Position numbers and translations under genes: made by a program
The notes under the pieces: generated by a model
Database searches by the model: none
What the model was told of the DNA's origin: nothing
What the model saw: the letters and a program-made list of their open reading frames with translations, nothing else
Assembly (NCBI GenBank): GCA_964187785.1
Contig: OZ076409.1
Coordinates: 25,794,001-25,858,000 of the forward strand
Source: Amphiscolops sp. MND2022
Taxonomy: Eukaryota
Reading direction: 5' to 3'
DNA length: 64,000 nucleotides
In this document: positions 41,392 to 64,000 of the stretch, piece by piece
Numbering within the stretch: position 1 is the stretch's first letter
Layout of the letters: the number at the start of each line of letters is the position of its first letter

Positions 41392-42012
41392 GTCAGTTAA
41401 ATCATTACGATACACGTACCGGTAAGCTGCATTTCAGTCAAGCAGCGTAATCTGTGTAATCCGTAAAATGGTCATTCAGCGTAAGTTAGTCAAGACGGTC
41501 TATGCTTCAACGGTGTAGCTGTGTCAACGCGCGTAATGGAAAATAGTGTAAGCTAGTCAAAACACGTAGTTAGTGAAAAGTGGAAGTTAGTCCAAAAATA
41601 CTCTTTTTCGTAAATCAGTCAAAACTTTGACTAACTTCCGCTTTTTGCAAATTGCAGATCGCTATACTTACAATAAGTGGAAGTTAGTCAAAGTTTTGAC
41701 TAACTTACACCATGTTTATATGCATTCAAAACTCAGTGTTCATTTTAATTCCAATTCATACCACAGCATCGTAAACCAGTCAAAGTAAACAATGATTCAA
41801 TAAATAATTAGTTATCATTACAAAGCTCTACCGTGCATAGTACGTATAAACTGCATTCAATGCAAGTTGCACACGTGAACACGTGTGTTTCATCCACGCA
41901 TTTACGTGCAAATAAAATACCTTGTAGCTTCTAATTAGTACAATTGATTGATCTGTCAACAGGTTTCCTATTTTAACAAAACATAATTAAAATCATCAGT
42001 TAAATCATCAGT

Positions 42013-42317
42013 TAAAATTTTATGATAAGATTCACGTTACGCCTTTTTACACTTTTAAATTTTCGCAATCGGGACAAAGTCTTTTTCCTGTGCCCTGTGA
42101 TATCAAAATCTCCGTCAATATTCCGTAGCCCAAAAGTTTTAGAGACCAGCATTGAGGATATTATGATAATATCCTCAATGCTGGTCTCTAAAACTTTTGG
42201 GCTACGGAATATTGACGGAGATTTTGATATCACAGGGCACAGAAAAAAGACTTTGTCCCGATTGCGAAAATTTAAAAGTGTAAAAAGGCGTAACGTGAAT
42301 CTTATCATAAAATTTTA
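42013..42317. repeat. Near-perfect 305-bp palindrome (152-bp arms, 1-nt centre)
   Basis: Centre at 42165; one arm mismatch seen; gives mirror ORFs on both strands. Confidence 0.95.
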
Positions 42318-42920
42318 TCGTAAAATTTTAATGTGACGAAAATCACAGAAGAAAAGTGTGTGTAAGATTTTTGGATTTTCCAGTAGCTTTAACTATTTGA
42401 TGAAAATAGCTCCACTACAACTCAATTAAACCCGTAGGAACCATGCACGAGACAAGGACTGGCTGAGTATTCACATAAATTTTTATTAATTCCGAAGAAG
42501 AGACGAATCAACTTAATCGAAGGCGGTGGGGGTAAGTATGACAAGGAAATCACCATCTTCAAAACTTAGTTATTTTACCGTCTTTCAGGTCTTTGTCTCG
42601 CTACTCTTGACCTGTTTTAATGTGTCTTTTCGCTGATGAAAAGAAACAGGTTGAACTTTAATTAATACGCAACAAATAAATAAGTCGATTTTTAGACACA
42701 AATACAATTTCACAACCACGGATAATAGAGTGAATAATATGACAACATCGATAATAACGGAGAATAGTACGGAGTATATTGGGAGGCATATAACACAAAA
42801 AAACAATAAACAAGGGTTTCAGCAAGGCTTAGTTTATGTATCCGTGAGGATGGGGGTGATATCGAACATATCGAAAGAACCAACTCGCCGCAAAATCTCA
42901 TCGGTCTTGGAGTGAAAACA

Positions 42921-43129
42921 AAATCCGTGTATTATCAGCCCACTTAGGCAAAACTGTGTATTATCAGCTCACTTAGGCAAAACCGTGTTTTATCAGCCCA
43001 CTTAGGCAAAATCGTGTATTATCATCAGCCCACTTAGACAAAGTCGTGTATTATCATCAGCCCACTTAGGCAAAACCGTGTCTTATCAGCCCACTTAGGC
43101 AAAACCGTGTATTATCAGCCCACTTAGGC
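42921..43129. repeat. Minisatellite, 7 x 29-32 bp (aaaaccgtgtattatcagcccacttaggc)
   Basis: Head-to-tail units with no spacers. Confidence 0.9.
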
Positions 43130-45086
43130 AATTATACATGTAATACGATGGACCAGCTGTCCATTTTACTCCCGGGTCGAAATCCGTACTAGGAGATGGC
43201 GGGGTAGCAATATATCAGGCTGCTTCAGGTTGTTAGGCTGAAGGCATGTGCTAACCGGCACATATGAAGTAAATCTGCAGTTTCGATAGTCCGGGGTCTG
43301 ATGCGGGATGCTATCGAACCTAAAGCAGCAAACCGTTTTCTAGATTTCAACTCACTTTGTGTGTCGCTAAAATGGCGCACACTTCGGTCAAAGTTACTTT
43401 TTCGGTAGTTTAGTTATATCATTATTCATATTTCATCATCTTTACTTTTTTGGGGGGCTGACTAACTGTTGAGCTTTTACAGTTGAGCTTTTACTAATAC
43501 AGTTTTTCCTACTTCGGTACTAAAAGTTCATCAGAAGTACTTTTCACACCACGACTCAGTCCTGGTTCCACGTTCTTGTCAATCATGACTAGTAGTTTTA
43601 CTTCGTTTTCAATAAAATTGAAGCGGAGTTGTTAATGACTCAATTTTTCCCACTTTTGTAAGCACGACTTGAACTACGGCTTACTGATTAATATTGCACT
43701 TTTTGTCAGGCCTGTTGTTTCCAAACGGCTCCTGACAACTCTCTCTAGCAAAATATGGCTGAAGGAAATAGTTTCCAACAATTTACAATGACCTAAAAGG
43801 CGATTTTAATTCATCGTAAAAAAGTCGATTTTCGTGTCCCAATTTTGAAGGTCAAAACCTAAGTGTTCCGATCGGGGGCGGCTAGAACCAAGTACACTAT
43901 TTGAACGTACAATTCAAACTTGCGACTTAGTCAACTTTCTATTTAAACTCCTTCATGATGAAAAACGCCCTTAAAGATTAGTGGTCAAAACTCACTTATC
44001 AACTTTTGCACAAATCTCAACTTTGGAGAGCTCGTACTCTGTCAATTCAAAAGATACAGCCTGGCGCCTATATACATCGCTAGCCCAAGCTCTTGGCAGT
44101 ATTTTGCACTTAAGTTGAGGTCTCTAGTTTGTTTCAACAAAGTTTGACAACGCTTTTTCTGAAAGGGGTCTTTTTTCGATTTTTGGTGACCTGACCTCCA
44201 ACTTTAGAGGTCAATATCTCATCACCTGGTCATTTTTCGGAAAAACGCTGTGCGCCAGTCCCTTGTGCATCTACCCTAAAATTTCAGCTCGATATTGCCC
44301 AAATGCGGGGGGTTCTCATTTTGGTAACTCGATTTCACTACTGACAACAAAAATAATCTACTTTCAACTCTTGGGGGTTTCTCGCTAGCGCGCCGCAGCA
44401 CTCGATTTAAGATTTCTTTCACTCATCCACTTCAACTCTCAAGTACACTTCAAAAGGGGCGGCTATTGTGCGCTTATACGTTGAGTCCTAAGCGAAAACA
44501 CGCGCAAAACGGCTATTTAGGCCAATTTAAGGCCCTTTTTAACGTTTGCTGGGCCAAATCTCAAAAACTACTGAATATTATTTGTTTTCCAATTACCACA
44601 AGATAGGAAATTCATTCAGTTTTAATTTAAGCCATATTTGAAAAGTTTCTGACAACTGTAGCGATCACAAGAAACTTTTAAGTGTAACTCCTTGTGGAAA
44701 GTCGTCAAAATTTTATGAAAACTTATTTTCAAAGCTTCCCCCAATATGTTCCCGTTAAAATCTCAACGTAAGCCCCCTTTTGATGGGCTGTCGAATGCTG
44801 AAAACCATTTGTTGATATCTTTCGTCATCTTAGAGATATCAGGTTTTGATTTTTAATTTCTATTAGAAGGAGGGATTAATTCATTGTGTGCGGCGGCCGT
44901 TTTCTTATTAGATAAGCGTACAGCCACTCACAGCGCGTTCTTAATTTCATTCCTATCGCTTTCTGACACGCTTTGGTGAGTTGCATTCATTGCTAATACC
45001 GCGCACTGTGAAGTTTCACTCTCGCATGCCCTCAATTACACGTATTAACATAGCGATTTGACTGTAATTCTGTACACTGTGAAAAA

Positions 45087-46119: not shown

Positions 46120-46284
46120 TAAACCTTGCTGAGTAATAATTTAAATAAACTTCATTTAGACATATGTAAAAGATCAAAAATCCTACAGTGTGTCGCAATC
46201 GAAAATGGTGCTTGTCATTTTTTCGAGGTCAGTTTTGAATAATTGAAAAGCCAGTTTTTGGAATGTTTTGAATTAGTTGCAACT

Positions 46285-47916
46285 TGTCGCAACCCTACTA
46301 TTGCGCTGGACCCGTGGTGCAACAATGAAAAACAGAACAGCACGAAGAGAGGGTATAATCACACATTTCAAACTTCCTAAACTGTATGAATAAACAACTT
46401 GATGTCATGTATTTTCTTTAAATAATTTGGATATTTGTAAAGGCAAATAGCCAATTGGATGATGTCTTATCCCATTCATAATTTACATGAAACCATGGAA
46501 GGTACTATTTGCGGTGGTTCTAAGATGCTAATTTGTGTTATGCGTCACACCTCGTGTAGTATTACAATGAGACTACGTGCATGTGCATTTATCAATGTAA
46601 ACATTATGCTAAATTGTACGTTTATGAATACTATGAGTATGCGTCAATATACGCTTTCACGGCCACCAACCATACGTGATCATACGCATTTGTGTTTTCA
46701 GTATATGCGTCGTCATGCGTTATAGAATGAATTATTCAGAATGTGCTGTGTATTCTCCAATTATGCAATAACATGCGGTAATGAAGCAATGTACATACGT
46801 TAACATACGTTTTTGATTATACGTCATTATACACACTTCTGACAACCTTATGAGCGTTAGGATACACTTTTGCTGTTAAATACGTGTAATTGCGCATATG
46901 CTATAATGTACATCATTTAGCGTTTTCCATAACACCAATTGTGCGTTAATATACGTATAGGAGTATGATGCCTATGCGCAAACGTGCAGTTTCAGTGAAA
47001 ACCCTAGATTCAGCTTTTTGGACGTCATGTAACCTCGAATTTGTACTTTATAAATAGTCTTTACGTCATCTGACGCAATTCTATTTATATTTTGAATAGC
47101 AATGATGTGCTAGAAAAGGAGTGTCATGTAAAATATTTTTTCTTGGGTAGATAAAGAGTGAAGGGGAGAACACAACGAGAGTATCTCTCTACGAATGCAG
47201 TTGCATATTTCTCTTCCTAACTTCGCGACAGTTTCTTTGATCTATTTCCCGTTTGTCTCTTTGATTTGATTTAAAGTATAGACTTTGAATAAATTCAAAT
47301 TCTTCCCCAACAATCAAATTACCATTTTCACTCGAGCAGAATGGGAAACAAAAGAAGCAGGAGATCTAGAAGATTGAGAACTCTATCCCCTGATGGAAAC
47401 TTAAGCGAAACACAATTAGAAACTTCTACCCAAGGTAATGATACATTAACTAATATTGGATCCAACACACAAGGAACGTCATGCAACGATGAAATTAGAA
47501 CTCAACTGATAGAACCTAGTCAGATAAGCAATGAGATCCAAGCATGGACGAATAATTTTGAACAAAAGAATAATGATAGAATCATGAAAATGAGAGAAGA
47601 AATGGAGAACAAACTAGAAGCTATCTTAAAGGAAATAAAGTCTAATAAAAGCGCATCTAATCTTTGGCAACAAACTCAAGATCCGAAACGAATGATGTTC
47701 AAAGCATGCAACCATCAGGGTCCAGGTTAGGTCAGTCTAATGGGGTACACGCATCTTTTGATGAGAATTCAGAACCGGATGATGTAGATTATCCTCCCCA
47801 AACTTCTAAAATGAGAGACCTTAGGCATCCAGCTAAACCATTGTTTCGAAGCGAATCTGATGTAGATGTAACTATACATTCAGACGAGGAGTCTGACCTG
47901 GAGGAGGATTATCACA
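46285..47916 (+). repeat. 5' LTR
   Basis: tgtcgcaacc...gattatcaca; about 19 substitutions versus the 3' LTR by eye (about 99% identity). Confidence 0.95.
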
Positions 47917-49036
47917 TGGTGACAGGAGCCAATAGACAACTCCATAGACAAAGTTCGCAAAACTCTCAACCTTTAAACGATCACACTGGACCCCATGCAG
48001 AACAAACAACGTCAACACTGGCGGATAAACCCCTTGACCCAGTTAACCAAATCGCACTTGCAATTGAGAAATTAGCGAACAAAAACCCCCAACAATCACT
48101 CTTCCACCCGAAAAACACATTAACCTTCAACGGCAAAAACGAGAAAAATGAAAAATTTGAATATTTCGAAGTTCTGTTCCATACAACACTTCGAATGCAG
48201 CCAAACCTGACCGAGGACATGAAAATCAACCACTTTCACGCACACCTCAGAGGTTTAGCCCTAAAAACTTTCAAAAATATACAAAGAACACCAAATACAA
48301 CACTGGAAGACATCTTGAAAGTCTTTCGCAGAAAATATGTCAAACCGGAATCCAGTGCATCAGCAAAACACAGATTCAATAGACTTTTCTTTGACCCCGA
48401 AAACCAAAAACTACCGGACTTTCTAGAAGAACTCCAGGAGAGTGCCGAAAAGCGTTTGGCGACAACGCGCACCAAATGATAGAAAACCTACTCTACGCAA
48501 AAATGCCCCCTCACCTCAAAAAATCCATTAACCAAGCATATCTCGAGAATGGAACATACAACCAAATCGTAAAACACCTCGAGAGGGAGATGGAGTTAAA
48601 CGGTTTGGAGGCCGATGAAACTTCAGTCAAAACCCAAATGACTGTTACCAAAAAAGAGCAAAAATCTGAAAAACCAACCAAAAAGCAAAACGACAAACCC
48701 AAAACTCAAAACCCAAAAACAGTACCAAATAAGACACGTAAAGATGATCAGTGCCGTTATTGTAAGGAGACAGGCCACATGATGTCCGATTGTCCCAAAC
48801 TAGCAAAAAGACGTAAACTCGAAGAGGACCCGGATGCACAAAAATGTCAAAACTGTAATACACCAGGTCATGAAGAAGAAAACTGCTATTTCGGCGCCAA
48901 TATGGAAAACCGCCCACCAAAATGGAACCTCACAGATGCTCAAAAGAAAGCCATCGAAGCTTACAAACAAGCGCGAAAACCCATAAAACCAAAAATAGAA
49001 CGATCTCAACAATCCTCTTCCAAGGATTTAAACTAG
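47341..49036 (+). pseudogene. gag: gag (frameshifted near 47660 and 48450)
   Basis: ORF pieces 47341-47730, 47664-48479 and 48476-49036; two CCHC knuckles CRYCKETGHMMSDC and CQNCNTPGHEEENC. Confidence 0.88.
47917..47930 (+). promoter_or_regulatory. Putative primer-binding site
   Basis: TGGTGACAGGAGCC directly follows the terminal CA of the 5' LTR; cognate tRNA not established. Confidence 0.7.
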
Positions 49037-52000
49037 AAACGCCACGCCTTAACAACCAAAACGCCCAAATAAATACAAAACCACAAAACGACTGGCAACG
49101 TCAAGTGGAATCCATAAATATACAACTTAAACAACTGACTACAGAACCCGACGACATGCCTCAAACACTTACACACTCAGATAGTAATCAACTTACACAA
49201 GAATCCTACTACGACCTCATGAGAGATGCCCCCGACAAGTATTTCTCAGACCACATCCAAACCCCTCCTGCATGCACAGAAAACCCTCCAAAAATTCATC
49301 ACCTGAGCACCTTCTCTTGCAATGAACAAAAACAACCCCTTTTGGATGCAGATATCACAAACCACATCCAATTTGACCAGGAACGTAACCTGTCATACCT
49401 ACCTATGTCAACCTCGCTAACATTGAAACGAAAACGTCACATGTACTACATGCCAATGGACTTCGAAAAACTCACACTTGATGGACTCATCGACACAGGA
49501 GCCCTGACTAGTGCAATCTCCGAACAAGACCTTAACAAAATCAAATTAATTGCAAATGAAGCAATAAAAGATACTGGCCCACCGCCAAATTTCCAAATTA
49601 TGGTGGCCAATGGTCAACTAGAGGTACCAATCGGCACAGTACTACTCGAATTTGAAGTGGCTGATTTCATGTTACGCGAAAACTTCATCATCATGAAAAA
49701 CCTACCAAACCCACTCATTGGTCTCTGCTTTCTTCGCAGAAACAATGCAGTTTTTGATGTCACACAAGGCATCCTAACTTTTCCATACCTCTCATTGCAA
49801 TTAAAGCCAGATACGCAAACAACAATGCGTCAAGCAACGCCTTAATTTGCTGAAAAAACATACACGCTCCAACCAGGTGAAACCCTCGCTATAGTAAGCA
49901 GAATGCCCCACCTGTTAGACCATTTTGAAAGCCACGACAGCATTTTCATCACATCGTCACTTAGTACGGTCAACAATAATGCTATCGGGTACCAAATAAT
50001 CAACTTTTCAGAACTTCCATACACAATAGTTTGCGACACCCATTTAGCAGAATTCAAAATCCTCACACCGGAACAAATCAAACATATACAACCGGTAGAT
50101 CCAGCGATGTTGTCATTCATGATACAACATGAAGAAACCACTGAAATCTACATAAGTGAAATATTGAAAGTTCCTTCACAAAACACTGAACAAGAATCTT
50201 ATTGGTTCCCAACACCAGAAGATCCAGAAGATCCTACAACGTATACCCCAATCCAACAACGAATCTACAATGAACTCCTTGAGCTCAAAGAACTTGAACA
50301 ACTCAACCCACAAGACAATGACAAATCCAGAAAAAGTTTTTTTTTCGAATTTCGACTGGACCGACACCACGCTCAACCCAGAAGAACAGAAACAAATTGA
50401 AGAAATCCTCATTGAATTCCACGACATTTTCGCCAGACATCGATTCGACATTGGCACCAATCGTGAATTCAAGGTTAAGCTTACACCAAACGATGACCGA
50501 CCAGCATACAGTCAAAGTTTACCGACACCAATCAACCTTAAAGATGATATTACGGTAGAACTAGCACTTCTACACAAATATGGAATCATAACAACCCTAC
50601 TTTTCTCAAAATACGCTAGTCCAATCTTTGCACAACGCAAACCGAACGGACGCCTCAGATTACTAGTGGATATCAGGAAAATCAACAACCTAATCACCGA
50701 AGACTACATCAACAACAACCATCCGGTAAGCACTTCATCGGATGCCGCACAACATATGGCAGGCAAGAAACTTTTCTGCAAATTAGACTGCTCCCAAGCT
50801 TACCACTGCCTTCAAATGGCAGACTACCAATCTATTCAGATGCTTGCTTTCAACTTTGCAAGCCGAACCTTTGCTTACCGCCGACTCGCCCAAGGGCTTA
50901 GCAGATCTCTTTCGGCTTTCTCAAGCTTCATGAGGGAATACCTTGACAAGGCGATCAAGGCCGACCAATGTGCACAGTACGTTGATGACATTGGTATAGC
51001 AGCAAATGACTCACAACAGCTATGCGCCAACATAAAGACGGTTTTTGAATGCATTCGAAACGCTGGTCTAAAACTCACAATGTCCAAATGTCATTTCGGA
51101 GTCAAAAAAGTCGACTTTCTGGGCAGAACAATTACGCCTGAAGGCGTCGCTCCGCAAGCCGACAAAGTCAAAAATTTCTTATCAAAGTGGAGATTCCCCA
51201 AATCCAAAAAAGCACTCCAAAGGTATATAGGATTTTTAAACTATTACCGCAATTACATCCCGAGACTTTCTGAACGATTATCTCCGTTCTTTAAACTTCT
51301 CAAAGAAACCTCCAAATTCTATGTACCCACGAATCTGGTCGAAGACTTCACCAATCTGAACAAACTTCTTGAGAATTCTTGCAAATTAGCTCTAAAACAA
51401 CCTCTTAAAGAGAAACAACTCATAGTCATGTCTGATGCAAGCTTTACAGCAGCAGGATACGCCATCATGATAGAAGATGATCCCAGTCAAAAACTTCAGT
51501 CCAAACGCAAAACATATGCACCTATAGCATTTGGTTCTAAAACCTTCAACCCAACACAAACAAAATTATCGATCTATGCGAAAGAATTCCTTTCCATCTA
51601 CTTTGCTTTTGTCGAATTTGGACACCTCATGTGGGGCAGCACATTCCCAATCATAGTGTTCACGGACAACAGAGCGGTTACCCGTTTCTTTCAAGCAAAA
51701 CTCATTCCTCCAGCACTCTGGAATGCATGCGATTATGTCCTACAATACAATTTTGTCATTGCCCATGTTGCTGGTTCAATGAATACGGCGGCGGATTTCC
51801 TATCCAGAACGGAAGTCAACCCAGTTGAAAAACTTGAAATGAGCATAAGAAATGATATACAAACGAAAGCGATAGAAGTCAATATACAATCCTCAGGTAT
51901 CGTAGAAGAAGAACAATTTTATATCCTCCCCGACGATGAGTTTGATGAAAACAAACTTTGGGAGGAAAAACAAAATGTGAGAAATCAGGCTCAAACTGAA

Positions 52001-53871
52001 ACTCACAATGACCCAGAAAACAACGTTACTGAACTTCAACAGTTTCACAAACCGACATCAGGCTTAAATACATGCTCCGAAGGACATTTCAGAGACAATG
52101 CCAGAATCAGACTCGAACAAAACAATGACATCGTTCTCAGAAATCTCAGAGCTAAAATCGAAGGAAACCCGTTTGATGAAAACGACTTGGCATCTGACTA
52201 CAGATACCAACATTATCTCCAAAACATAACCAGAATTGAAATCAAGCAAGAGGTTCTAACGAGAAAATACTACACAGACACAGGAACCACTTCACATTAC
52301 CAGATTTTGTTACCAACACAACTCCTAGAAGAACTACTTCAAGCCCTACATGGTCACAACTCGAACCATCCAGGTATCACAAAGATGATACAAGAGGTGA
52401 GGCAGAAATACTATTACCCGTGCATTGCAAAATACATTAAAAAATGGGTGAGTAATTGTCAAACCTGCATACAAACCAAAAGGATCAATAATGACCTTCT
52501 CAGAACCGAACTACTTAATTGCCCCGAATGGGACCTCGGCCCTGAAGACATTCTCCAAATGGACATTCTACCAAATCTTCCACCCAGTGGTGGATACGAC
52601 CACATTATAACAGCGATTGATGTCTTCTCGCGATACCTGTTTGCTTACCCAGTGACTCGTATCACCGCAACATCAGTCGCTCGAGTAATAATGGACATTT
52701 TATGCAAACATACATACCTTCCAACAACCATCATCACAGACCTTGGCACAGAATTCAATGTCCAAGTAACACACGAAGTCACAGCAGTCCTAGGTGTTGA
52801 GCTTAAACATGCAACAATGAAACACGCTCAAACAATAGGACTCCTGGAAAGAACACATGCTTCAGTCAAAACCCAACTTAAAGCAGCAACTGGAGAATTC
52901 CGACATAACTGGCATAAATTTCTACCGTTAGCGGTTCTAAACCACAACACAACATACCACGCATCGCTTGGTTGCGAGCCTTCACGAGTTTTTCACGGCC
53001 GCATACCACACAACATACTGGATTATAAGTTAGGATATAATCCTAATCCGAAATACCACATACAAACTGATGTCGGAGAAGAAATACAAAGAAGAATGCG
53101 AATATTACTAGACCAGACCAAAAAGAACATATTGCAATCCTATCTTAAATATAAAGCTTATTATGATAGGAAGGCCAAGGCATCACCGCTGGAAACAACG
53201 GACTACTGCTACATTCTTAATCCGAAGGCTGACACACAGGCAGCAAAGATACCATTCCGTGAATTCAGGTGGCAGGGTCCTTACAAGGTTGAAAAAGTCC
53301 TTCCTAACAACAATTACATAGTTAGAAGACTAGGAACAAACAAAACACAACTCTTACACCGAATTCGGTTGAGGAAATTCACACCGCACGCACCTTTAGC
53401 TGACATTTTTGTCCGAGAAACCGATTGGCAAAAAGATGATCAAATGCCAGTGGCTCACGATGACTTATATGCCCAATCATGGAACACAAACTTTGGACCT
53501 AATCCCTTCGAAGATAGTCATCCGGATAATACACAAGACACTGATGCAGTGGAATACGTACCTGTCGATGCACCTGAAAATAACCACCCCCCTCCCTCGA
53601 ATTTCCAAAAAACAGTGGGGGGAGCCCTGTGGAACAGCCCACTGAGCGTGAAGAAGAAAATTATGATGAAATTCAGCAAGAAATTCAAAATGATGATACA
53701 GAAATCTCCCAAAAAACTCCAAAAGAAAATACACCAGAAAAACAAACCCAAAAAACCCCAGAAAACTCACAAAATACCCCATTGCAAAAAGAAACCATAA
53801 ATACTCGTGGTGAAAAATACAACCTACGTCCCAACCCCAACCCAAACTTCTCCGACTCGTATAGATACTAA
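48922..53871 (+). pseudogene. pol: pol polyprotein: protease, possible dUTPase-like remnant, RT, RNase H, integrase (premature TAA at 49843, frameshifts near 50340 and 53620)
   Basis: LIDTGA (protease), QYVDDI (RT), SDAS...FTDN...ADFLSR (RNase H), HGHNSNHPG...CQTC plus MD/TD/ER catalytic triad and WQGPYKV (integrase). Confidence 0.93.
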
Positions 53872-54050
53872 AAAACTGACAAATGAAGACTTCTTATCTT
53901 TTTCTCCGGAGCTTTTTTCATTGTTTTTACTGTTGTTGGCTTTAATAATGTACAACAACTGCTCCTCTAAATACACATAGTAACATCAGAGACATAACAA
54001 TAACATACAATCAGTAAATATAAAAAACGAAAATTGTCTTGAACAGTACA

Positions 54051-57000
54051 TTAGTTCTTGGAACTCTTGCCAGCCTTTGCCGCATGTTTCTGACCACTAC
54101 CAGAAGCGCCATCATTAGCACAGCGAGCAACACTGACTGAAATCCGTCCAAGATTGAGGCCAGAGCTAGGGGAACCGCTTGTACTAGGAGAACGACTAAC
54201 AGTGGGGGTAGACATATCCAGAAACAGAGGTAGCCCTTCACTCGGCAACACAGACTTCTTGTATGCACCCTCCATTTTCTCCAGCAAACCAACTCTCCGC
54301 GGTACATTTCCCTTTAAGAAATCCCAGATTGAAAATTTTCTGTCTTTGATCAGAGCAGGCCCTCGTCCCAGAAGGCGAAAGACGCGACAGATAGTTTTCG
54401 TGTCCCTATATAAACTGGAGACATTGGGCACTGTGGAATACGATAATTGCAAGCTTCGAATTGCAGAATTGTATGAATCCTTATCGGATGCCAAATCAGG
54501 AATGGACAAGTCAAACTTTGCAGGGATAGACAGCACCGGAGGCAAACACAAACAGGCGAATCTGAATACCTGCAGAAGCGAAGGGCGGCACTGCATTTCA
54601 TAATGGGACACGAGATAATGTATCCAGCCATCCCTGGGAGTGTTGTCCACGAGACGCAATTTCACGATAAAAGCACGGTACTCGCTCACACATGTAACTT
54701 TGTTACTGGCAGTCAACCAGCCTTTAGCGACAAAATAACTACTCAGGCATTCAATAGCTCCGACGTAGTTCTGTTCCGGACCGTCCAACATGACAGCAGG
54801 GTCAAATGCCGACAAACCCCGCATGAGATCAGAAGTAACGATTTCGTGGGTGAGGAGGACAGTGCAAAAGGCCTTGCAAAAAGCAGGAGACTGTTCCACG
54901 AACTTGCTAGGCCGTGGGAGCCGACTAGAAGCCACTAAATAGTGGTAAGTTGGATTCATAGCAAATTCTGCAGGAGTTTTGTATGGCAGATTGGGATCAT
55001 TTAAATCAATTTTCAAAAAACCATCCCAGTTTGAGACGTCTCCGAGAAAGCTATCAGGAAACAGATTCTGGAGCTGGCTGTATACAAAGACTGAATATTG
55101 ATTATACAGTCTAAATCCACACTCAATGCTGCCAAGGATGCCCGAAAATGCTGAGTTATCTGAAACAAGAGAAGAATCTAATCAAAACAACGAAAGAACA
55201 ATAGAACACTGAGAAAAATAGTGAAATAAAGCGCTTTAAGGAACAGTGACGTCACCCTACTGAATCCAGCTCACGTATATACACTGCAGTACAAACTTAA
55301 TTTCTTGATTATGCGTCATTGCACAGAGTTCTTCTGACAGTACACACGCTACAATACGTACTTGAGCAGCCGACCATACGTCAACATGCGTAAAATGTCT
55401 TGACGCATATGCGTCAACATTCGGTCCCGAGTGTTTGACTGCGCGTCACTATGCGGAAAGTAACTAAACGCTTATACGTCAGTAGTATATCTCACAACCA
55501 GGTTATACGTCACTATGCGGATATCAGTGAAATGAATATACGTCAATATACGGCGTGGAATGATTTGTCAAAAATGAATGGCAAATTCCAAAAATTCCAA
55601 GCATCTTAACAAGCTGAGATTAATGATTTATACACGTGCAATTTTCAGTTCATGAAGCCTCAAGTCTATTGTGTTTACGAAAGACACCGCAAATAATATC
55701 AGCGTCATCACGCGGAAAAGGGACTGTGTATATACTAACAAATTCGGATCCATACCAAACGGACATGCGGTATTGTATGGAAATGGAATGCGCGAATATA
55801 CGCGAGTATACGGATTTTGGAAATAGCGCAGCTCATGGCAATACTAACGCAAATGCGGTAGCAAAATGTGAAATATACCAAACAAACTTAAAGTTGCGAA
55901 AACAATTACATGATCTTGAGCCCAAAAGGACAAAGAACGAAACAGTAGGAACCAATGTAACAATGAAAGACAGTTGGCCGATTCAAAAGATACAGATAGT
56001 GAATTACACTAACAGTGGTCAATGACGCATCGAATGATAAACAGGCGAGCAAGGTAGGCGGTATCCAACGGAAAACATTCGTCTAGTGCACTGGGCTAAA
56101 ACATTCAACAAGGTATTACATTTTCGCGTTGGGACTCAACAAGACATTCGTAAAGATCAATATTGTACCTCTTTCATGTGGAAACGGTAGGCAGGGAGAC
56201 GGGCAACTTGCGACAGATGTTCCCTGACCCGATCCCAGTTGCGAGAAAGGCATTCAATTAGCTCTGAGGCTTCTTCCAATGAGTATTGCAAAGAGAGGAC
56301 ACACTAAAACCAAAGATAGGATGAACATAACTAACTAGAAATATCACTCTCAAATAATAGAATAAAGAATATTAAATGACCTTGTGGAGTAGAGGAAGTG
56401 ACTGCAACCAATTTTTGTCGAGGGCAGTACGGAGTTTCATCAACAAGAAGTCAACGATAGTACGAAAATCATGTCGCTCGATAATCTTTGCGGTAGGTAA
56501 GGCCAGGCATCGTTCAAATTCCTCAAGACCGAAATTGTTAACAATGCAAGGACGTTGTCGGCCAGGTAATTCAGAACTCAGACAAGAATTCAGTTTCTCA
56601 CCCATTCCATTAAGGCTAAGACAAGGTGGTGGAGACTCAATAAAACTGACGAAGGAAGCAATCAGTGACAGAATTTTACGTGGGATCAATAACCCACGAG
56701 GGCCAGTGCCAATGCACACTTGATGAACCACGTTCCCAGACCAAAAGTTGACAAATAAATACGTCTCTGTATCTGTGTAACACAAGGACAAAGAATAACT
56801 TCCGCTAGATGAGGAATTGGTAACGCAGTAGTGGATTAATTCACGGAACATGTGCACTATAATTCCCTGGAAACAACAAGACTCTAAGTATCATTAGCTA
56901 AATTTCAACAGAACAATTAAAAACCGTAGTGATGAAACTACGTGATAATGACAAAAGATTAGAAAATGATGAAGGAAACTTACAAATAGCCGATGAGGGC

Positions 57001-58237
57001 TCCAATTGAATGCACCAGCAGATCCACTTCCCCCAGCGAACTGAGTAACTTCATCGTAGATGTCAGTTAAGCAAGACAGATGTCCTCCATTCCGTAACCC
57101 AATCTCGATCACACAAATTTGAGAGATCACAGTTTCGACGGGACTTTTTCCTACCCCAGAGCTTGGGAGTTCATCCTGACCGACAAGCAAACGACATGGG
57201 TCAAGTTGCAGGGCAATGGGATAAGTCTCCTTGGCAAGTTTCTTGGCGTTTGTTAGTGCTTGCCCTTGCTATTCATTCTCGTACTTATCAAACAGCGGCA
57301 TTCCAGGGGTTTCCATCCGAACCCTGTGCTCTTTGACTAAGTGTGACTCGGTCCTGTAGTGGGCAAGCAGTTCCAGTATTCCACGACTCATTAAAGATAA
57401 TTCGAGTTTACAAACCCGACACCACCACTTGTATGGGGTTTTCTCTCGGTCTATTGGGCCAGTTGCTGATAGTTTGAGAACGGGATGTTTTCGGAACATA
57501 CTCCCCTTAAGGGAATACCGTGGGCGTTGACGTTTGCCTCTTACGGTTGGCCGTTCGTCGGACTCACAGAATAACTGCTGACCAAACGCTTCTGCCCCAA
57601 CATATTCACTTGTGCCAGACTGGCTCAGATATCGATGAGACGGCCCAGGGGGGTTGTCTATTACGGACACCGACAATCCCATATCAGCTGCCACGTCAGT
57701 TCCTTGTAGGAAAGATGGTGGAATCCTACCCAGCACACTATTCAAGGCGATAATTTCGTTGCGGGTTATGCTGATACTTGGTGTGATCTGCCCCGTCATA
57801 TGCCTATTTGCCTCCGCTTGGGCTTGCTCCTGGGGAGGCCAATCGCTAGTTTCTCCCTCAGAAGGGACTTGGTGCTCAGCCAACTCGTCAGTCTCTGCTG
57901 TTTCACTCGCGGGTTGTGGAGATTGAATGAATTGAGTAAATCGTGGGGAGGAAGTCTGTAATTTGGGTGGAGACAGATTGTCAACGTTTTCTTCCATTTC
58001 AACTCCTGGTGGGCTCTCCACTTGCAAGGTAGTGATTCCAGAGAGAAGTGGTGTGACTAATGCTTCAGGGGTGAGAAGACCGCCAGCAGGAAGTGTCTCA
58101 GTTTGTGGATTTGTTGTTTCAACAATTTCAAGTGGGAGATCTACGGCTGAACTCTCGATGGTTATCACGCTGACGTGATCTTGAACGAGTTCTGGTGCAA
58201 ATTCAGAAGGATGAACGGACGGGGCTTCCAAGGGCAC
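54051..58237 (-). CDS. Antisense, spliced BED-zinc-finger / hAT-transposase-derived gene inside the retrotransposon (about 1020 codons; one in-frame TAG at 57269-57271)
   Basis: Exons 56984-58237, 56381-56866, 56169-56303, 56014-56095 and 54051-55159 are joined by GT-AG introns with compatible phases; BED-like motif WCRVCKLELSLMSRGILELLAHYRTESH; possible further upstream exon ending at 58575 (gtaagt). Confidence 0.72.
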
Positions 58238-59997
58238 ATAAACTTTTGTGGGCGACCGAGCTGGTGATTTCTCCGTTGAGCCGACTTCAACTGAAACAGA
58301 CGTTTTTATAACTGTTTGTTCAGTAAAAGCAAAGTCAAATTAACGATTTCTGCCTAGCAACATTTTCAAACCGGACGCGGTTTCGAGAATATTAATTTGG
58401 GCGGAAGTTGTCTAAAATGCGACCGGAAGTTACTTCTTCTGAAAATTCAAATCTGTTTCCACCTTTGAAATAAGGAAACAGTATACTCGCTAGCCTGGCC
58501 AGCTTAGCAACCGAAACACTGACTAGAAATCAGACAAACAAAACAAACATTAACAAATTAGAATTCGGACTTACCAGGGGAGGTTGAAGTCGGTGATTTG
58601 TACCCCCAAGTAGCAGTTTGCCTTCTGGAGATTTGATCCTTTCGGGATTTCCGATTTCGCCCTGGCTCCTTTGGAAAGGTAAAGTAAAGTGGAACACACC
58701 AAATTCAAAAGAGCAGAAGAGAGACTCTGGATTATACAAGCAGAATGTTGATGTATTAAGAGATGCGACGACAAGTTGAAAATAACCAGTAACAGAACTC
58801 AAGAATGTAAATCGCAATGGAGAAAAATGAACGATGAAGACTTACTGAAACTTTTGTACTTTTAACAGATAGAATTGCAAAGCAAGATGAAGGCGTGGCG
58901 TATACAATGAAAGGCAAAAAGAGCAAATGACTAATGTAAATTAACATGGTGAAAATGGACCTTAATGCTGATTGGCTAAATAAATCAATCAATCACTACT
59001 GCCAGAGTGATCGATTTGACGTAATTGACATGTGAAAGAGTCACAAACATTCCCAAAAAGAAGTACGCGTTAATGGTGGAGATTTTCAAGTTGGTTGAAC
59101 CAATATCCTACGCCAATATGCTGATTCGTCATGAACGAATATACGGTAATATACGGTAAAGATAGGATTGGATATGCGGCATCATGCGGGGAGGAAACAA
59201 CAGCATATGCTGCATTATGCGGAACTAAAGAGAACCGAGTATGCGGTAACCTACGGATATAATAATGAAGTATAAGCGTCAACATGCGGCGTGGAATGCA
59301 ATTTGTGGCGATACAGTATGACAACAATCTAAGCAGATGCACCACGTAAGGACCAATTGGAAGTGAACATAGAAGGGTGTAAGACAACACACACACGTAA
59401 TACGATGACCAAGATGCTAACTACTACATATACCACTGCCTTCAAACATGCAGTTCCGAGTATCATTCTGATAAAATAAAAGGCTGGTGGGTCAATTTCA
59501 ACCTACATATGGATTTGATGAATAAGAGACGCAGCACTTTCCAAGTGCTGGACCTTATGACGGAAGACCGGGCAACGAAAAATAATCTAATGGTATATAT
59601 CACGCAGATCCTCAGTTGGTGAAAACTTATTTTTGTAAAACTATGAAACTCTTTATGGAAGTTTGTATCTGGATAGATCTTATACATGAAAGATGTATTG
59701 ATCATTCATACGTAGTGAACACTTTAGTCATCATTTTGTTTACATTATATCTAAATGCTGTTGAAGATATGGAAGTAGAGGTCAAAAGAATAGCCACTCG
59801 AAGTGAGGAAACCCTCACAACCAACCCTAAATTGTTTACAAGTAATTGATGAGAGCCTTAGTGGAGCTTACCTTAAAAGGGCTATCTACGGCTTTTATGG
59901 ACTCCTTATATGGATTCTACGAAACTGATAACCATGACAAGCAACTTTTTGGAGGGAAAACTTATTCTCGAAAGGGAACTAGAAGAAATTTCACCAT

Positions 59998-61149
59998 ATG
60001 GTCTTAGTGAATCTAGAACTCAGTCATCTCACCAGAGTTTTATTCAGTGTCGCAAACTCTCCCAAACAAGTGAATTTATATCGGATAATAATGAATAATC
60101 TTCAATTCAATGTCGATGATGACCCACTCTACTCTCCAATTTCACCTGAGGTGGTAGATATTTCTAGCGGATCTGAAGACGGTTTCCTAGTGGAACCTGG
60201 CAATATGTTCAAAATAGACGAGAAGTTTAGGATTAATCCTACAGGAACAAACTTGATGTCAGCATTTATGGGTACTACATCAGCATCCCTGTTCCCTGAA
60301 ACTAGTGACACCGCAACAATAGTAGAGGAAATGGACACTGCAGGGACTCGTTTGGAAAAGGAACTGATGGAACTGGTGGGGGATACCCAAGGAAATCAGC
60401 TGTTCTCCCCTAATTCATTCATGGACAGTGAATTTGAGGAAACTGATTTATCCCCTCCTGATCTACTGGAAGGGACTACGGTGAGCACAAACAGTTATGG
60501 GTGGCCTATAGCTGCCATACTGCCGACACCTAGGGCCCCGCAAATAAATACAAGGGAAATCTCTCAGCCAATTCCGATATACCCACCTAATTTTCGTCCA
60601 GGAAATACAGATTTCCAAATCGTCCAAAACAATGAAATGGTGTTTGAAAACACGACGGACCAGCCCATGCCCTCACTCAATACAATCCATACTGTAATGC
60701 CTTTGAACAACATGACCCCTGTGGTCATCCAGCTTCCAATGAGAGGAGCGCCAGACAGACATCCCCAGATGGTCACCTCATCACAACCGTTAGCTCAAAT
60801 GGGGTTCCCTTTTAACGTAGCCCACAGTACAAACCATCTGCTTCTCCCAACAGAAGAGAGACAAAGACACAGGTTAATCCCCACAGTCATGCCTAATGTT
60901 GCGGGCTATTGTGACTGGTGCGGAAAAAGCTTCGACCAAGTGGCAATGGAGACCTTAGGAGAATATCTTGCAGCAACAGCTTACGAGGGGGAGACTGTGA
61001 GAGACAGAGGCGTGCGTTCACGAGCATTTATTGACGGTTTCGAGGCCGCACTGTTCTGTTTCAAAAGTGCTGGACTGTTGCAACCCTACTATTGCGCTGG
61101 ACCCGTGGTGCAACAAAGAAAAACAGAACAGCACGAAGAGAGGGTATAA
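59998..61149 (+). CDS. Orphan accessory ORF of the retrotransposon (383 aa, acidic and Pro-rich, C-terminal CxxC), ending inside the 3' LTR
   Basis: Long uninterrupted ORF in AT-rich DNA; GYCDWCGKSF motif; no recognisable family. Confidence 0.65.
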   Translation: MVLVNLELSHLTRVLFSVANSPKQVNLYRIIMNNLQFNVDDDPLYSPISPEVVDISSGSEDGFLVEPGNMFKIDEKFRINPTGTNLMSAFMGTTSASLFPETSDTATIVEEMDTAGTRLEKELMELVGDTQGNQLFSPNSFMDSEFEETDLSPPDLLEGTTVSTNSYGWPIAAILPTPRAPQINTREISQPIPIYPPNFRPGNTDFQIVQNNEMVFENTTDQPMPSLNTIHTVMPLNNMTPVVIQLPMRGAPDRHPQMVTSSQPLAQMGFPFNVAHSTNHLLLPTEERQRHRLIPTVMPNVAGYCDWCGKSFDQVAMETLGEYLAATAYEGETVRDRGVRSRAFIDGFEAALFCFKSAGLLQPYYCAGPVVQQRKTEQHEERV

Positions 61150-62707
61150 TCACACATTTCAAACTTCCTAAACTGTATGAATAAACAACTTGATGTCATG
61201 TATTTTCTATAAATAATTTGGATATTTGTAAAGGCAATTAGCCGATTGGATGATGTCTTATCCCATTCATAATTTACATGAAACCATGGAAGGTACTATT
61301 TGCGGTGGTTCTAAGATGCTAATTTGTGTTATGCGTCACACCTCGTGTAGTATTACAATGAGACTACGTGCATGTGCATTTATCAATGTAAACATTATGC
61401 TATATTGTACGTTTATGAATACTATGAGTATGCGTCAATATACGCTTTCACGGCCACCAACCATACGTGATCATACGCATTTGTGTTTTCAGTATATGCG
61501 TCGTCATGCGTTATAGAATGAATTATTTAGAATGTGCTGTGTATTCTCCAATTATGCAATAACATGCGGTAATGAAGCAATGTACATACGTTAACATACG
61601 TTTTTGATTATACGTCTTTATACACACTTCTGACAACCGTATGAGCGTTAGGATACACTTTTGCTGTTAAATACGTGTAATTGCGCATATGCTATAATGT
61701 ACATCATTTAGCGTTTTCCATAACACCAATTGTGCGTTAATATACGTATAGGAGTATGATGCTTATGCGCAAACGTGCAGTTTCACTGAAAACCCTAGAT
61801 TCAGCTTTTTGGACGTCATGTAACCTCGAATTTGTACTTTATAAATAGTCTTTACGTCATCTGACGCAATTCTATTTATATTTTGAATAGCAATGATGTG
61901 CTAGAAAAGGAGTGTCATGTAAAATATTTTTTCTTGGGTAGATAAAGAGTGAAGGGGAGAACACAACGTGAGTATCTCTCTACGAATGCAGTTGCATATT
62001 TCTCTTTCTAACTTCGCGACAGTTTCTTTGATCTATTTCCCGTTTGTCTCTTTGATTTGATTTAAAGTATAGACTTTGAATAAATTCAAATTCTTCCCCA
62101 ACAATCAAATTACCATTTTCACTCGAGCAGAATGGGAAACAAAAGAAACAGGAGATCTAGAAGATTGAGAACCTTATCCCCTGATGGAAACTTAAGCGAA
62201 ACACAATTAGAAACTTCTACCCAAGGTAATGATACATTAACTAATATTGGATCCAACACACAAGGAACGTCATGCAACGATGAAATTAGAACTCAACTGA
62301 TAGAACCTAGTCAGATAAGCAATGAGATCCAAGCATGGACGAATAATTTTGAACAAAAGAATAATGATAGAATCATGAAAATGAGAGAAGAAATGGAGAA
62401 CAAACTAGAAGCTATCTTAAAGGAAATAAAGTCTAATAAAAGCGCATCTAATATTTGGCAACAAACTCAAGATCCGAAACGAATGATGTTCAAAGCATGC
62501 AACCATCAGGGTCCAGGTTAGGTCAGTCTAATGGAGTACACGCATCTTTTGATGAGAATTCAGAACCGGATGGTGTAGATTATCCTCCCCAAACTTCTAA
62601 AATGAGAGACCTTAGGCATCCAGCTAAACCATTGTTTCGAAGCGAATCTGATGTAGATGTAACTATACATTCAGACGAGGAGTCTGACCTGGAGGAGGAT
62701 TATCACA
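61076..62707 (+). repeat. 3' LTR
   Basis: tgttgcaacc...gattatcaca, followed by TSD caact. Confidence 0.95.
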
Positions 62708-64000
62708 CAACTAATTCAAACAATTTCCAAAACCGGCTTGTCAATTATTCAAATTGATAACCTCAATTCGAACTGAATCAACAATATTCATCAAAGTTGA
62801 AAAGAATCTCGCAGGAAATTTTGTATGAAGTTGATGTGCTACTACACAGGTTGTAGGTGAACCCAAAAAACGGACACACAAAATATTCAAAATCGTAATA
62901 TTTGTAAACAATCTCTCACTTTTCTGTCAAACTTCAGCTATCATAACGTAACCAATTTTGAACCAAGGTTGGTTGAAAGATTCTGAAAATGTCTATAGAG
63001 AACAAATGTCAATTAATTGAGATTTTGAGAGCTCAAGAACTTTCATGCGTTGTTTTTTTCTCATGTTTTACTGTCAATCATCCGAACTGATTTTGCTATC
63101 ACAAAACCAATACCTTCAGAAAAGAAATTTCGAAGCTTCTCGACATGTCCTCCGAGTAACCATTGAATCAGTAATACTTGTCCATCTATTCTCATTTCGA
63201 AGACAAAAACTAACTTAATTTGAACAGAAGTTGCCATTTGGAAACATTGCGCGCCTGTTTGGAAAAAAGCAGCTGTAGTCATGGCTTTTTGTCAGTTTTT
63301 TCAATTCACCTGAACTAGCCAAAATAGTTCTACCAAAATGTCTTCACGTTCAGCGATGTCCCTTTTGGCCATCTACATACTCTATTTAAACTGTAAAAAG
63401 CGCTAAGGAGTCCCCTCTGACAAAAACGCTACCAATACCAGATCTAACATATTCCTGACATTACACGTTCCAGGTATAACATATACAGGATATAACGTTT
63501 CCTGGAGAACTTTTCAATGATACAAAAGTGTCCCCTTTTTCAATTTTTTGGAATTTTTTGGATTTTCAAAGTTCATACAAAATCATTTGAAGCCAAAGCC
63601 TCGTTTTTGGGTACTGTGAGACTCTTTCGAACCTTTTGGTTTGCAGTTGAGGAAAAAGTGGTTTTCGAGCCTTACGCGTATCCCTTGGGGTATTATTGGC
63701 ACTGAGAAATTGAAATTGTTATATTCGGTTCATACCGACTTGACCTCTACCGTAAATTCGGATACCAGCAGTCTAGAAGATAGGAGTTGTTTACCAACAA
63801 ACTCTAAATAGACTCTCATACCATACATACATTTATACATTTGTTTTGGTCACAATACAGTGATACAAACATAGATCTATCTCTTTTAACAATTTCCTTT
63901 TCTCTTAGCCTATACCCTTAGAATAGAACATGGCGCAGTCAGCCGATTTTTAAACTGTGTAAACCCTTCATAACGAAAAATAATGGCTGAAAAAAATACC

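Follow-up and report, generated by a model that had tools for sequence, protein, structure and literature searches.

Phased ATRCG dyad arrays in an animal Ty3/Gypsy retrotransposon are candidate sites for a zinc-finger protein of the element itself

Introduction

A 64,000-nucleotide stretch of the Amphiscolops sp. MND2022 genome (GCA_964187785.1, contig OZ076409.1, positions 25,794,001 to 25,858,000 of the forward strand; hereafter the window) raises the question of which protein reads the short, regularly spaced motifs of a retrotransposon. The element is a 16.4-kb Ty3/Gypsy long terminal repeat (LTR) retrotransposon at window positions 46285-62707, in a host genome totalling 1.07 Gb, and its non-coding DNA holds arrays of the direct dyad ATRCG-N5-ATRCG. 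The LTRs, target-site duplication (TSD), primer-binding site (PBS) and the order gag-protease-reverse transcriptase (RT)-RNase H-integrase were all present, and the gag-pol of this copy was broken across several frames. Two divergent cargo genes, a multi-exon antisense gene and a sense open reading frame (ORF) of 388 aa, occupied the interval between pol and the 3' LTR. A preliminary description of the window had proposed that the element's own BED/hAT protein and the CpG-containing arrays may form a self-recognition module for activation or anti-silencing. Judging from sequence and from analogy with known systems, we put the chance that the antisense protein binds the arrays cooperatively and, as a VANC/TnpA-like self-recognition switch, activates the LTR and its own promoter or shields them, at about one half. 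The wider claim that the arrays are bound by the element's own protein, in whatever role, appears on the same grounds somewhat probable.

Results

Phased dyads in the non-coding DNA of the element

Counted with one LTR (14,791 bp), the element contained 11 exact dyads on the plus strand and 0 on the minus strand, compared with a mean of 0.02 (maximum 1) in 200 dinucleotide shuffles. When up to one mismatch was allowed, 21 dyads were found against a shuffled mean of 0.7 (maximum 4). All 11 exact dyads were non-coding (3,889 non-coding bases tested), and the flank at window positions 1-46000 contained 0. The scan suggested in the preliminary description thus revealed strong enrichment. In a phase test starting from the exact dyads, the mean number of mismatches was 3.3 at 33 bp, compared with 5.0-8.3 at the remaining offsets from 18 to 47.

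The arrays lay in the LTR, in an intron of the antisense gene and between the cargo genes (Table 1). All 20 start positions previously listed fell in the dyad register, and 8 of them were perfect dyads. The LTR units at 46540, 46573 and 46606 carried (0,3), (1,2) and (1,1) mismatches in their two half-sites, and those at 46639, 46672 and 46705 were perfect. The intronic units at 55376, 55505 and 55538 were also perfect; those at 55311 (0,3) and 55474 (0,4) retained only the first half. Between the genes, 59141 and 59174 were perfect, three units had 1 mismatch and 59108 had 2. Degenerate half-sites were therefore present as described. The first half-site preferred the context Y-ATRCG-K-C-A, and the second ATRCG-G-W-W-T-T.

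The exact 33-bp period reported for the LTR held from 46540 to 46705, but the later steps were 58, 32, 24, 61, 61 and 33 bp. The same array was present in the 3' LTR. The second array was intronic as stated, but its intron, numbered 4 before, became the last of five in the revised gene model because the conserved 82-nt exon at 56014-56095 had been overlooked. Adjacent units in the window had a linker identity of 29% (74/252), which is the chance level and agrees with the unrelated sequence reported between units; Tandem Repeats Finder did not report the arrays as 33-bp repeats.

Duplication and selection in the arrays

Ten relatives of the same clade (clade A, E1-E10) were fetched through exon and finger searches, their last antisense exon being 54-67% identical to that of the window. 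All three locations (LTR, last intron, intergenic region) carried arrays in 10/10 of them, and synonymous sites in their cargo genes were at or near saturation. Pairs of exact dyads spaced by 32-34 bp gave 1544 + 1548 matches in the genome, where base composition predicted well below 1 per strand. The reversed-pattern control gave 323/380 and was not clean, probably because its complement overlaps the same arrays. Among the matches listed, 13 of the 14 array loci spot-checked matched proteins of this element clade, the other (L089) being an orphan fragment. Together with the empty window flank, these results supported confinement of the arrays to the clade.

A lag test was performed on 460 single exact half-site anchors in 33 array regions. 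Partners were concentrated at 10 (121), 33 (147) and 32 bp (51), with further peaks at 23 (69), 43 (81) and 64-66 bp (52-75), against a random mean of 7.4 and maximum of 20. Substitutions were then counted at motif positions defined on a third (outgroup) sequence. Over eight partly dependent pairs, differences amounted to 63/569 in the core, 35/157 at R, 74/385 in the spacer and 401/1769 in the linker (core vs linker, p=4e-10); in the young families E7/E8, they amounted to 2/81 in the core vs 55/230 in the linker. We relied on the lag test and these counts, as the unit-derived information profile and the core identity of 85% were inflated by unit picking; the class counts of substitutions between paired LTRs were biased and were not used.

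The preliminary description had favoured selection rather than tandem duplication. Selection on motif and spacing was borne out by the lag-test peaks and by a core that changed about half as often as the linkers. Duplication, however, proved to be the generator of the arrays and not an alternative to selection, since near-perfect 32/33-bp tandem runs were found in E4, E5, E6 and E10 (linker identity up to 0.79). The sequence comparisons thus showed that the arrays are built by tandem duplication and that their motif and phase are held by selection. Such runs are also what neutral, decayed 33-bp minisatellites would leave, but a neutral origin has almost no probability. Substitution at motif positions was two- to tenfold lower, the window linkers were at chance identity, the same motif and period occurred at three unrelated places, and independent arrays were found in a different intron of clade-B elements. 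The lag test and the core-linker counts largely refuted the neutral reading.

Co-variation of motif and finger between clades

We fetched 18 elements of four more clades (B, 5; C, 4; F, 5; H, 4), all of which were LTR elements with the antisense gene. The clade-B finger was 55-62% identical, and exact ATRCG dyads numbered 0-1. Clade-B arrays consisted of TATGC(G/T/A)G and its reverse complement at +21 or -5, i.e., an inverted pair of the same half-site, with periods of 38-40 bp in a different intron and 24/26/50 in the LTR; those of B5 were weak. In clades F and H, the finger was 36-40% identical with a different finger tip, and no dyads were found. These two clades carried GAC-N5-GTC at 9-25 (F) and 35-39 (H) sites per element vs about 4 expected, and the 12 A/B/C elements counted had 1-4 vs about 2 expected (counts cover 20 of 29 elements). 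GAC ranked first of the 64 palindromic trimer pairs in 6/6 F/H elements tested and in 0/4 A/B/C elements. The clade-H site extended to TGCCGTC-N4-KGAC-N5-GTC, in both orientations, and 19/38 and 21/39 of the GAC-N5-GTC sites in two elements lay within gag-pol coding DNA. In the finger tree, clades A, C and F each fell on one side of a supported branch, B was unresolved and H stood outside the tree.

These results indicated that motif and finger co-vary at clade level, a check proposed in the preliminary description, with the motif constant within clade A. The co-variation is suggestive and not decisive because about two independent motif switches occurred among the five clades. As a separate observation, the palindromic site was spread over the whole element, including gag-pol, in clades H (L093-L100) and F (L065-L074), and may be a whole-element recognition tag.

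The arrays could also bind a host transcription factor or insulator protein, the clade motifs differing through different host factors, which we consider unlikely. The Su(Hw) array in Drosophila gypsy is a case of host-protein sites in a retroelement, and LTR enhancer repeats for host factors are common. The first half-site was often RCGTCA, which we take to be a cAMP response element (CRE)-like half-site, but many arrays had GCA in place of TCA, with R free. Clade C retains the gene without arrays, and gene-less derivatives would retain host sites too. On the other side stand the confinement of the arrays to the element clade, the use of the same half-site in three geometries, and the switch to GAC-N5-GTC, which goes together with the finger switch and extends across gag-pol coding DNA.

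The same co-variation would arise if the element's protein bound the arrays as a repressor for copy-number control, or in the handling of cDNA or the pre-integration complex. The clade-H sites across coding DNA resemble a tag of the whole element and not just of a promoter, and the intronic array had no obvious promoter alongside. Arrays, however, expand repeatedly and are retained by non-autonomous derivatives, which gain more from activation, and the LTR array of clades A and B stood directly upstream of a TATA-like box. We therefore regard these roles as decidedly unlikely.

All exact clade-A dyads were on the sense strand, as expected if the motif acted in the sense genomic RNA as a signal for export or packaging, recognized by the zinc finger or by Gag. 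The best row of the VIA structure search for finger residues 10-79 was likewise an RNA-binding TUT4 finger (Z 4.5, root-mean-square deviation (rmsd) 3.1, 64 aligned), and clade-B units formed hairpins with z down to -14. These hairpins were, however, about as strong or stronger on the opposite strand, and clade-A arrays showed no consistent structure (sense z +2.3 to -5.0 over 7 regions). GAC/GTC had no compensatory variants, the clade-H sites occurred in both orientations, and phasing by helical turns is a trait of duplex DNA. An RNA signal is thus very unlikely.

Arrays in gene-less derivatives

Two elements of about 3.9 kb (L050 and L051) consisted of 1.3-kb LTRs, a gag stub and the end of the sense ORF, without the antisense gene, and their LTR arrays retained 7-9 units. 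L051 had an LTR identity of 99.3%, a TSD and the same PBS as the window element. As gene-less elements retain the arrays, the arrays are cis sites for a protein that acts in trans and is encoded either by the element or by the host. Together with L052, these two represent young non-autonomous LTR elements of 3.9 kb whose LTR arrays are enlarged and whose PBS is the same.

The antisense gene and its zinc finger

The antisense protein has, in order, a low-complexity N-terminus, a basic KRxRPRY segment, a CCHH finger, a helical region, a strand-rich exon and a helical C-terminal exon. The window copy carried an in-frame stop at 57269-57271, just after the finger, and other family copies read through. 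The finger residues C, C, H and H were invariant in 50 aligned sequences, the database members among which had been pre-filtered on that pattern. Finger identity within clade A was 77-85% vs 54-71% for the remaining exons. Between E7 and E8, the finger had a nonsynonymous divergence (dN) of 0.017 vs a synonymous divergence (dS) of 1.59 (dN/dS about 0.01). The structure model had a predicted local distance difference test (pLDDT) score >90 over the finger and comprised two strands and two helices.

In the Atlas features, a clade-F homologue scored 0.92 to a cluster that is 83% Dimer_Tnp_hAT, with 10/10 family matches concordant; the window exon had no Atlas match. In Pfam searches with the window exons and with alignments, the cargo proteins matched no family, and profile searches of PDB gave nothing useful. 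No inverted repeat bounding the antisense gene was found. The strand region of the core exon had no invariant acidic residue, and its mapping onto the hAT catalytic triad is our assumption. The body of the protein is probably hAT-derived, and there is weak evidence, from sequence and the structure model, that the finger is BED-like. The BED/hAT protein of the preliminary description thus remains as a strongly conserved zinc-finger gene with hAT-like traits, but its BED and hAT membership depends on weak matches.

No longer homologues of the last exon were found. A 718-aa homologue match was rejected as a spliced form, as it represented read-through of an in-frame intron. Wherever their sources were shown, the homologues of the antisense protein were unnamed ENA proteins. 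Four of these on short contigs (P0148, P0164, P0165 and P0212) were distant finger-family members, and P0226 had no match at the strict cut-off. The best match of P0148 in this genome was 36%, without a close relative, so that the finger family may occur in other species.

DNA methylation

A search for C5-methyltransferases gave 5 matches among 11 candidates. Two chromosomal genes were DNMT2-like (E 5.5e-64 and 3.3e-36, vs 2e-4 and 8e-5 for DNMT1); DNMT1/3 were not found, a classification that covers these two of the 5 matches and does not prove absence. The DNMT2-like genes (L031 and L032/L034) were on different chromosomes, and L032 also had frames that we take to be histone H2B-like and, in a short one, BED-like. 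In the paired LTRs of 20 elements, transitions affected CpG sites at 20/3446 and other C/G positions at 104/19183 (p=0.8), and the observed/expected ratio of CpG was about 0.9. Because CpG was not hypermutable and DNMT1/3 were not found, a link of the arrays with CpG methylation, towards which the preliminary description pointed, is unsupported. This indirect test via LTR transitions, CpG ratio and methyltransferases gave no sign of the removal of element DNA methylation that characterizes VANC.

The sense cargo ORF

The CxxC domain of the sense ORF had dN 0.02-0.04 vs dS >2 in two pairs. Its acidic N-terminal segment was also conserved, the CxxC domain extended into the LTR, and the product could be a cofactor. 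It might itself be the binder in place of the antisense protein, given the strong purifying selection on this domain and the adjoining intergenic array. It had, however, no match to a DNA-binding family, was mostly acidic and proline-rich, and was undetected in 2/5 clade-F elements that still carry their motif, so that this possibility deserves very little credence.

The antisense gene was synonymously saturated in the pairs E6/E7, B1/B2 and F3/F4, in which the RT dS was only 0.06-0.30, suggesting that the cargo cassette was swapped between families. Between the window copy and E9, pol was 94.5% identical and the last antisense exon 53%.

Layout of the element and other repeats

The features of the element are listed in Table 1. 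The gag frame opened within the LTR, about 580 bp short of the LTR end, and read through the PBS (47341-47930), a layout common to the relatives. The CRE-like and TATA labels at 47020-47090 are presumed.

Table 1. Coordinates of the element and its arrays in the window.
Feature	Position	Strand	Remarks
5-bp TSD	46280..46284		repeat at 62708-62712
5' LTR	46285..47916	+	1632 bp, TG...CA; blastn 98.8% identity to 61076-62707; 3' third overlaps start of gag frame
LTR (U3-position) dyad array	46540..46988	+	33-bp phase in first half
Candidate core promoter	47020..47090	+	directly after LTR array; CRE-like words; TATAAAT at 47049-47055
gag-protease-RT-RNase H-integrase	47341..53870	+	Pfam Ty3_capsid, zf-CCHC, gag-asp_proteas, RVT_1, RT_RNaseH, rve
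PBS (TGG...)	47917..47930	+	within gag reading frame; same site in non-autonomous L051
Last exon, antisense gene	54051..55159	-	helical; weak likeness to C-terminal half of hAT transposases
Intronic dyad array	55311..55552	+	8 units, 31-33 bp steps, within last intron 55160-56013
Small extra cluster of half-sites	55732..55812	+	10-bp steps; absent from preliminary description
82-nt exon	56014..56095	-	conserved in 11/11 elements compared (clades A, B, C); restores reading phase
135-nt exon	56169..56303	-	
Strand-rich exon	56381..56866	-	probable degenerate transposase core
Long exon	56984..58290 (end 58290 approximate)	-	low-complexity, basic KRQRPRY segment, zinc finger, helical region
Zinc finger C-x2-C-x16-H-x5-H	57350..57430	-	best-conserved part of gene
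GGCGTGG + GATTGG words	58880..58985		like positions in other clades; candidate host-factor promoter of antisense gene
Intergenic dyad array	59108..59288	+	6 units, 33-34 bp steps, between divergent cargo genes
Sense cargo ORF	59983..61149	+	388 aa, acidic and proline-rich; conserved C-terminal CxxC domain; no Pfam family
3' LTR	61076..62707	+	same dyad array at 61331-61779

A composite repeat with a GGCGCCGACT core was scattered over window positions 7277-40706 in several copies of either orientation, and a piece similar to this repeat was inserted in the LTR of B1. A hairpin repeat with 168-bp arms lay at 41997-42333 and a 29-bp tandem array at 42919-43131. The 21-bp tandem array at 19069-19187 contained the only minus-strand near-dyads outside the element.

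Discussion

Binding by the antisense protein, the reading that we favour, follows the Hermes BED rule, the tandem-amplified targets of VANC and the known route from transposase to regulator. The Hermes BED domain recognizes a short motif with an AT-rich tract behind it, and its binding is cooperative and fixed in position (PMC10368747). VANC targets build up by tandem repetition within introns, between genes and in terminal regions (PMC5735166). The probably hAT-derived protein would no longer transpose and would act as a positive, clade-specific regulator. Each BED-like finger would recognize a single YATRCG half-site together with the A/T-rich tail that follows it, the 10-bp dyad would set two fingers on one helical face, and the 32/33-bp period, about three turns, would align successive dimers for cooperative loading. 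The bound protein would open or activate the LTR and its own promoter, giving positive feedback, and may also serve non-autonomous derivatives in trans. The silencing opposed, if any, is probably not CpG methylation.

A broader scenario, which we hold only tentatively and at slightly less than even odds, is that a DNA transposase was taken up by an animal Ty3/Gypsy lineage and, once its catalytic function had gone, was retained there as a private, sequence-specific switch. Clade-specific codes would then co-evolve with the finger and would activate or shield thousands of copies and their gene-less parasites without involving CpG methylation. The codes would be phased ATRCG dyads, inverted TATGCxG pairs, and GAC-N5-GTC palindromes reaching into gag-pol.

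The self-recognition module of the preliminary description thus gained support from selection on the motif, confinement to the clade, the conserved finger gene and clade-level co-variation, but its CpG angle fell away and clade C lacked arrays. Several observations weigh against binding by the antisense protein. The four clade-C elements have an intact finger (55-59% identical) with arrays in 0/4; a single dyad-like TATGC site in their intron 3 was spotted post hoc. Shared descent combined with different host factors would produce co-variation as well. In two pairs of old, decayed copies, core and linker differed little or not at all in substitution (17/71 vs 71/233; 10/69 vs 31/232), as decay after insertion would predict; the alignments behind the substitution counts may favour motif columns, and the eight pairs are not fully independent. 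No antisense exon of the window had a Pfam match, and zf-BED (PF02892) was matched in none of 9 clade-A sequences and in 3/50 wider relatives (best E 1.6e-4). Foldseek gave no match at E<=0.001 and VIA none at Z>=5. The BED rows of Foldseek had E 1.9-3.8 and none was significant, including a chain of a ZBED3-containing complex (E 1.9, target TM-score (TMt) 0.55, rmsd 4.3) and the ZBED1 BED domain (E 3.1, TMt 0.42, rmsd 3.4). The VIA alignment to Hermes (8edg; Z 4.4, rmsd 7.6, 176 aligned) placed residues 1-246 collinearly on 365-609 and was the longest in the list, but its Z was tied with unrelated helical proteins.

Comparison with known systems

Repeated sites combined with an element-encoded activator of LTR and internal promoters are found in foamy viruses (Tas) and in HTLV (Tax with its 21-bp repeats). 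To our knowledge, none of gypsy Su(Hw), Tas and Tax uses a transposase-derived finger.

The Arabidopsis VANDAL/VANC system also combines an element-encoded accessory protein with a tandem-amplified short motif in non-coding regions that differs between related families (PMC5735166). Here, too, motif arrays lay in non-coding regions and the motif differed with the protein at clade level. The present element differs in being an animal Ty3/Gypsy retrotransposon with no CpG-methylation signature, with strict 10- and 33-bp phasing and with self-binding as a candidate function only. Its protein is zinc-finger and hAT-like and not MAIN-related (PMC13547354).

Spm TnpA and other transposase-derived regulators likewise correspond to a transposase minus its catalytic part and act through motifs on cognate and non-autonomous copies (bioRxiv 10.64898/2026.08.24.746577). 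They stay in their own DNA transposon, whereas here the carrier would be a retrotransposon; the whole words 'retrotransposon', 'LTR' and 'BED' have 0 occurrences in that text. Hermes shares a single finger per chain, a short motif plus an AT-rich tail, cooperative pairs and the importance of exact spacing, but its finger is CCHC, reads AAGT and belongs to a protein that transposes, whereas the present CCHH finger is in an LTR element without terminal inverted repeats (PMC10368747).

The plant Retand Gypsy elements share a long region between pol and the 3' LTR, an antisense gene with predicted DNA binding, frequent tandem arrays and non-autonomous members, and a regulatory role has been proposed for them (PMC11963269). 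Retand repeats vary, are specific to families and have no known function according to that source (PMC11963269), whereas the phased motif of the present element is conserved, occurs in the LTR as well and tracks the protein. Pfam searches of the window proteins and relatives gave no match to TRP28 (PF04195). The element thus works like VANC/TnpA and resembles Retand in layout, and it is a member of neither because it has no methylation signature and no TRP28. Our literature search, mostly of freely accessible main texts, did not return any account of a comparable system in LTR retrotransposons of animals.

Sequence-specific self-activation encoded by the element itself is, in the literature cited here, a property of plant DNA transposons that counter DNA methylation. 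If the proposed switch is real, the principle would be widened to a retrotransposon that obtained its regulator from a different class of transposon, in an animal lacking a methylation signature. The switch could account for the great abundance of the clade (first-look candidates number in the thousands) and would hint at what the so far unexplained antisense genes and tandem arrays do in Retand-like elements. Clades A/B and F/H provide natural finger-motif pairs with which a BED-type recognition code can be tested directly, and the element would, if the switch is real, represent a counterpart of VANC/TnpA acting against silencing other than methylation.

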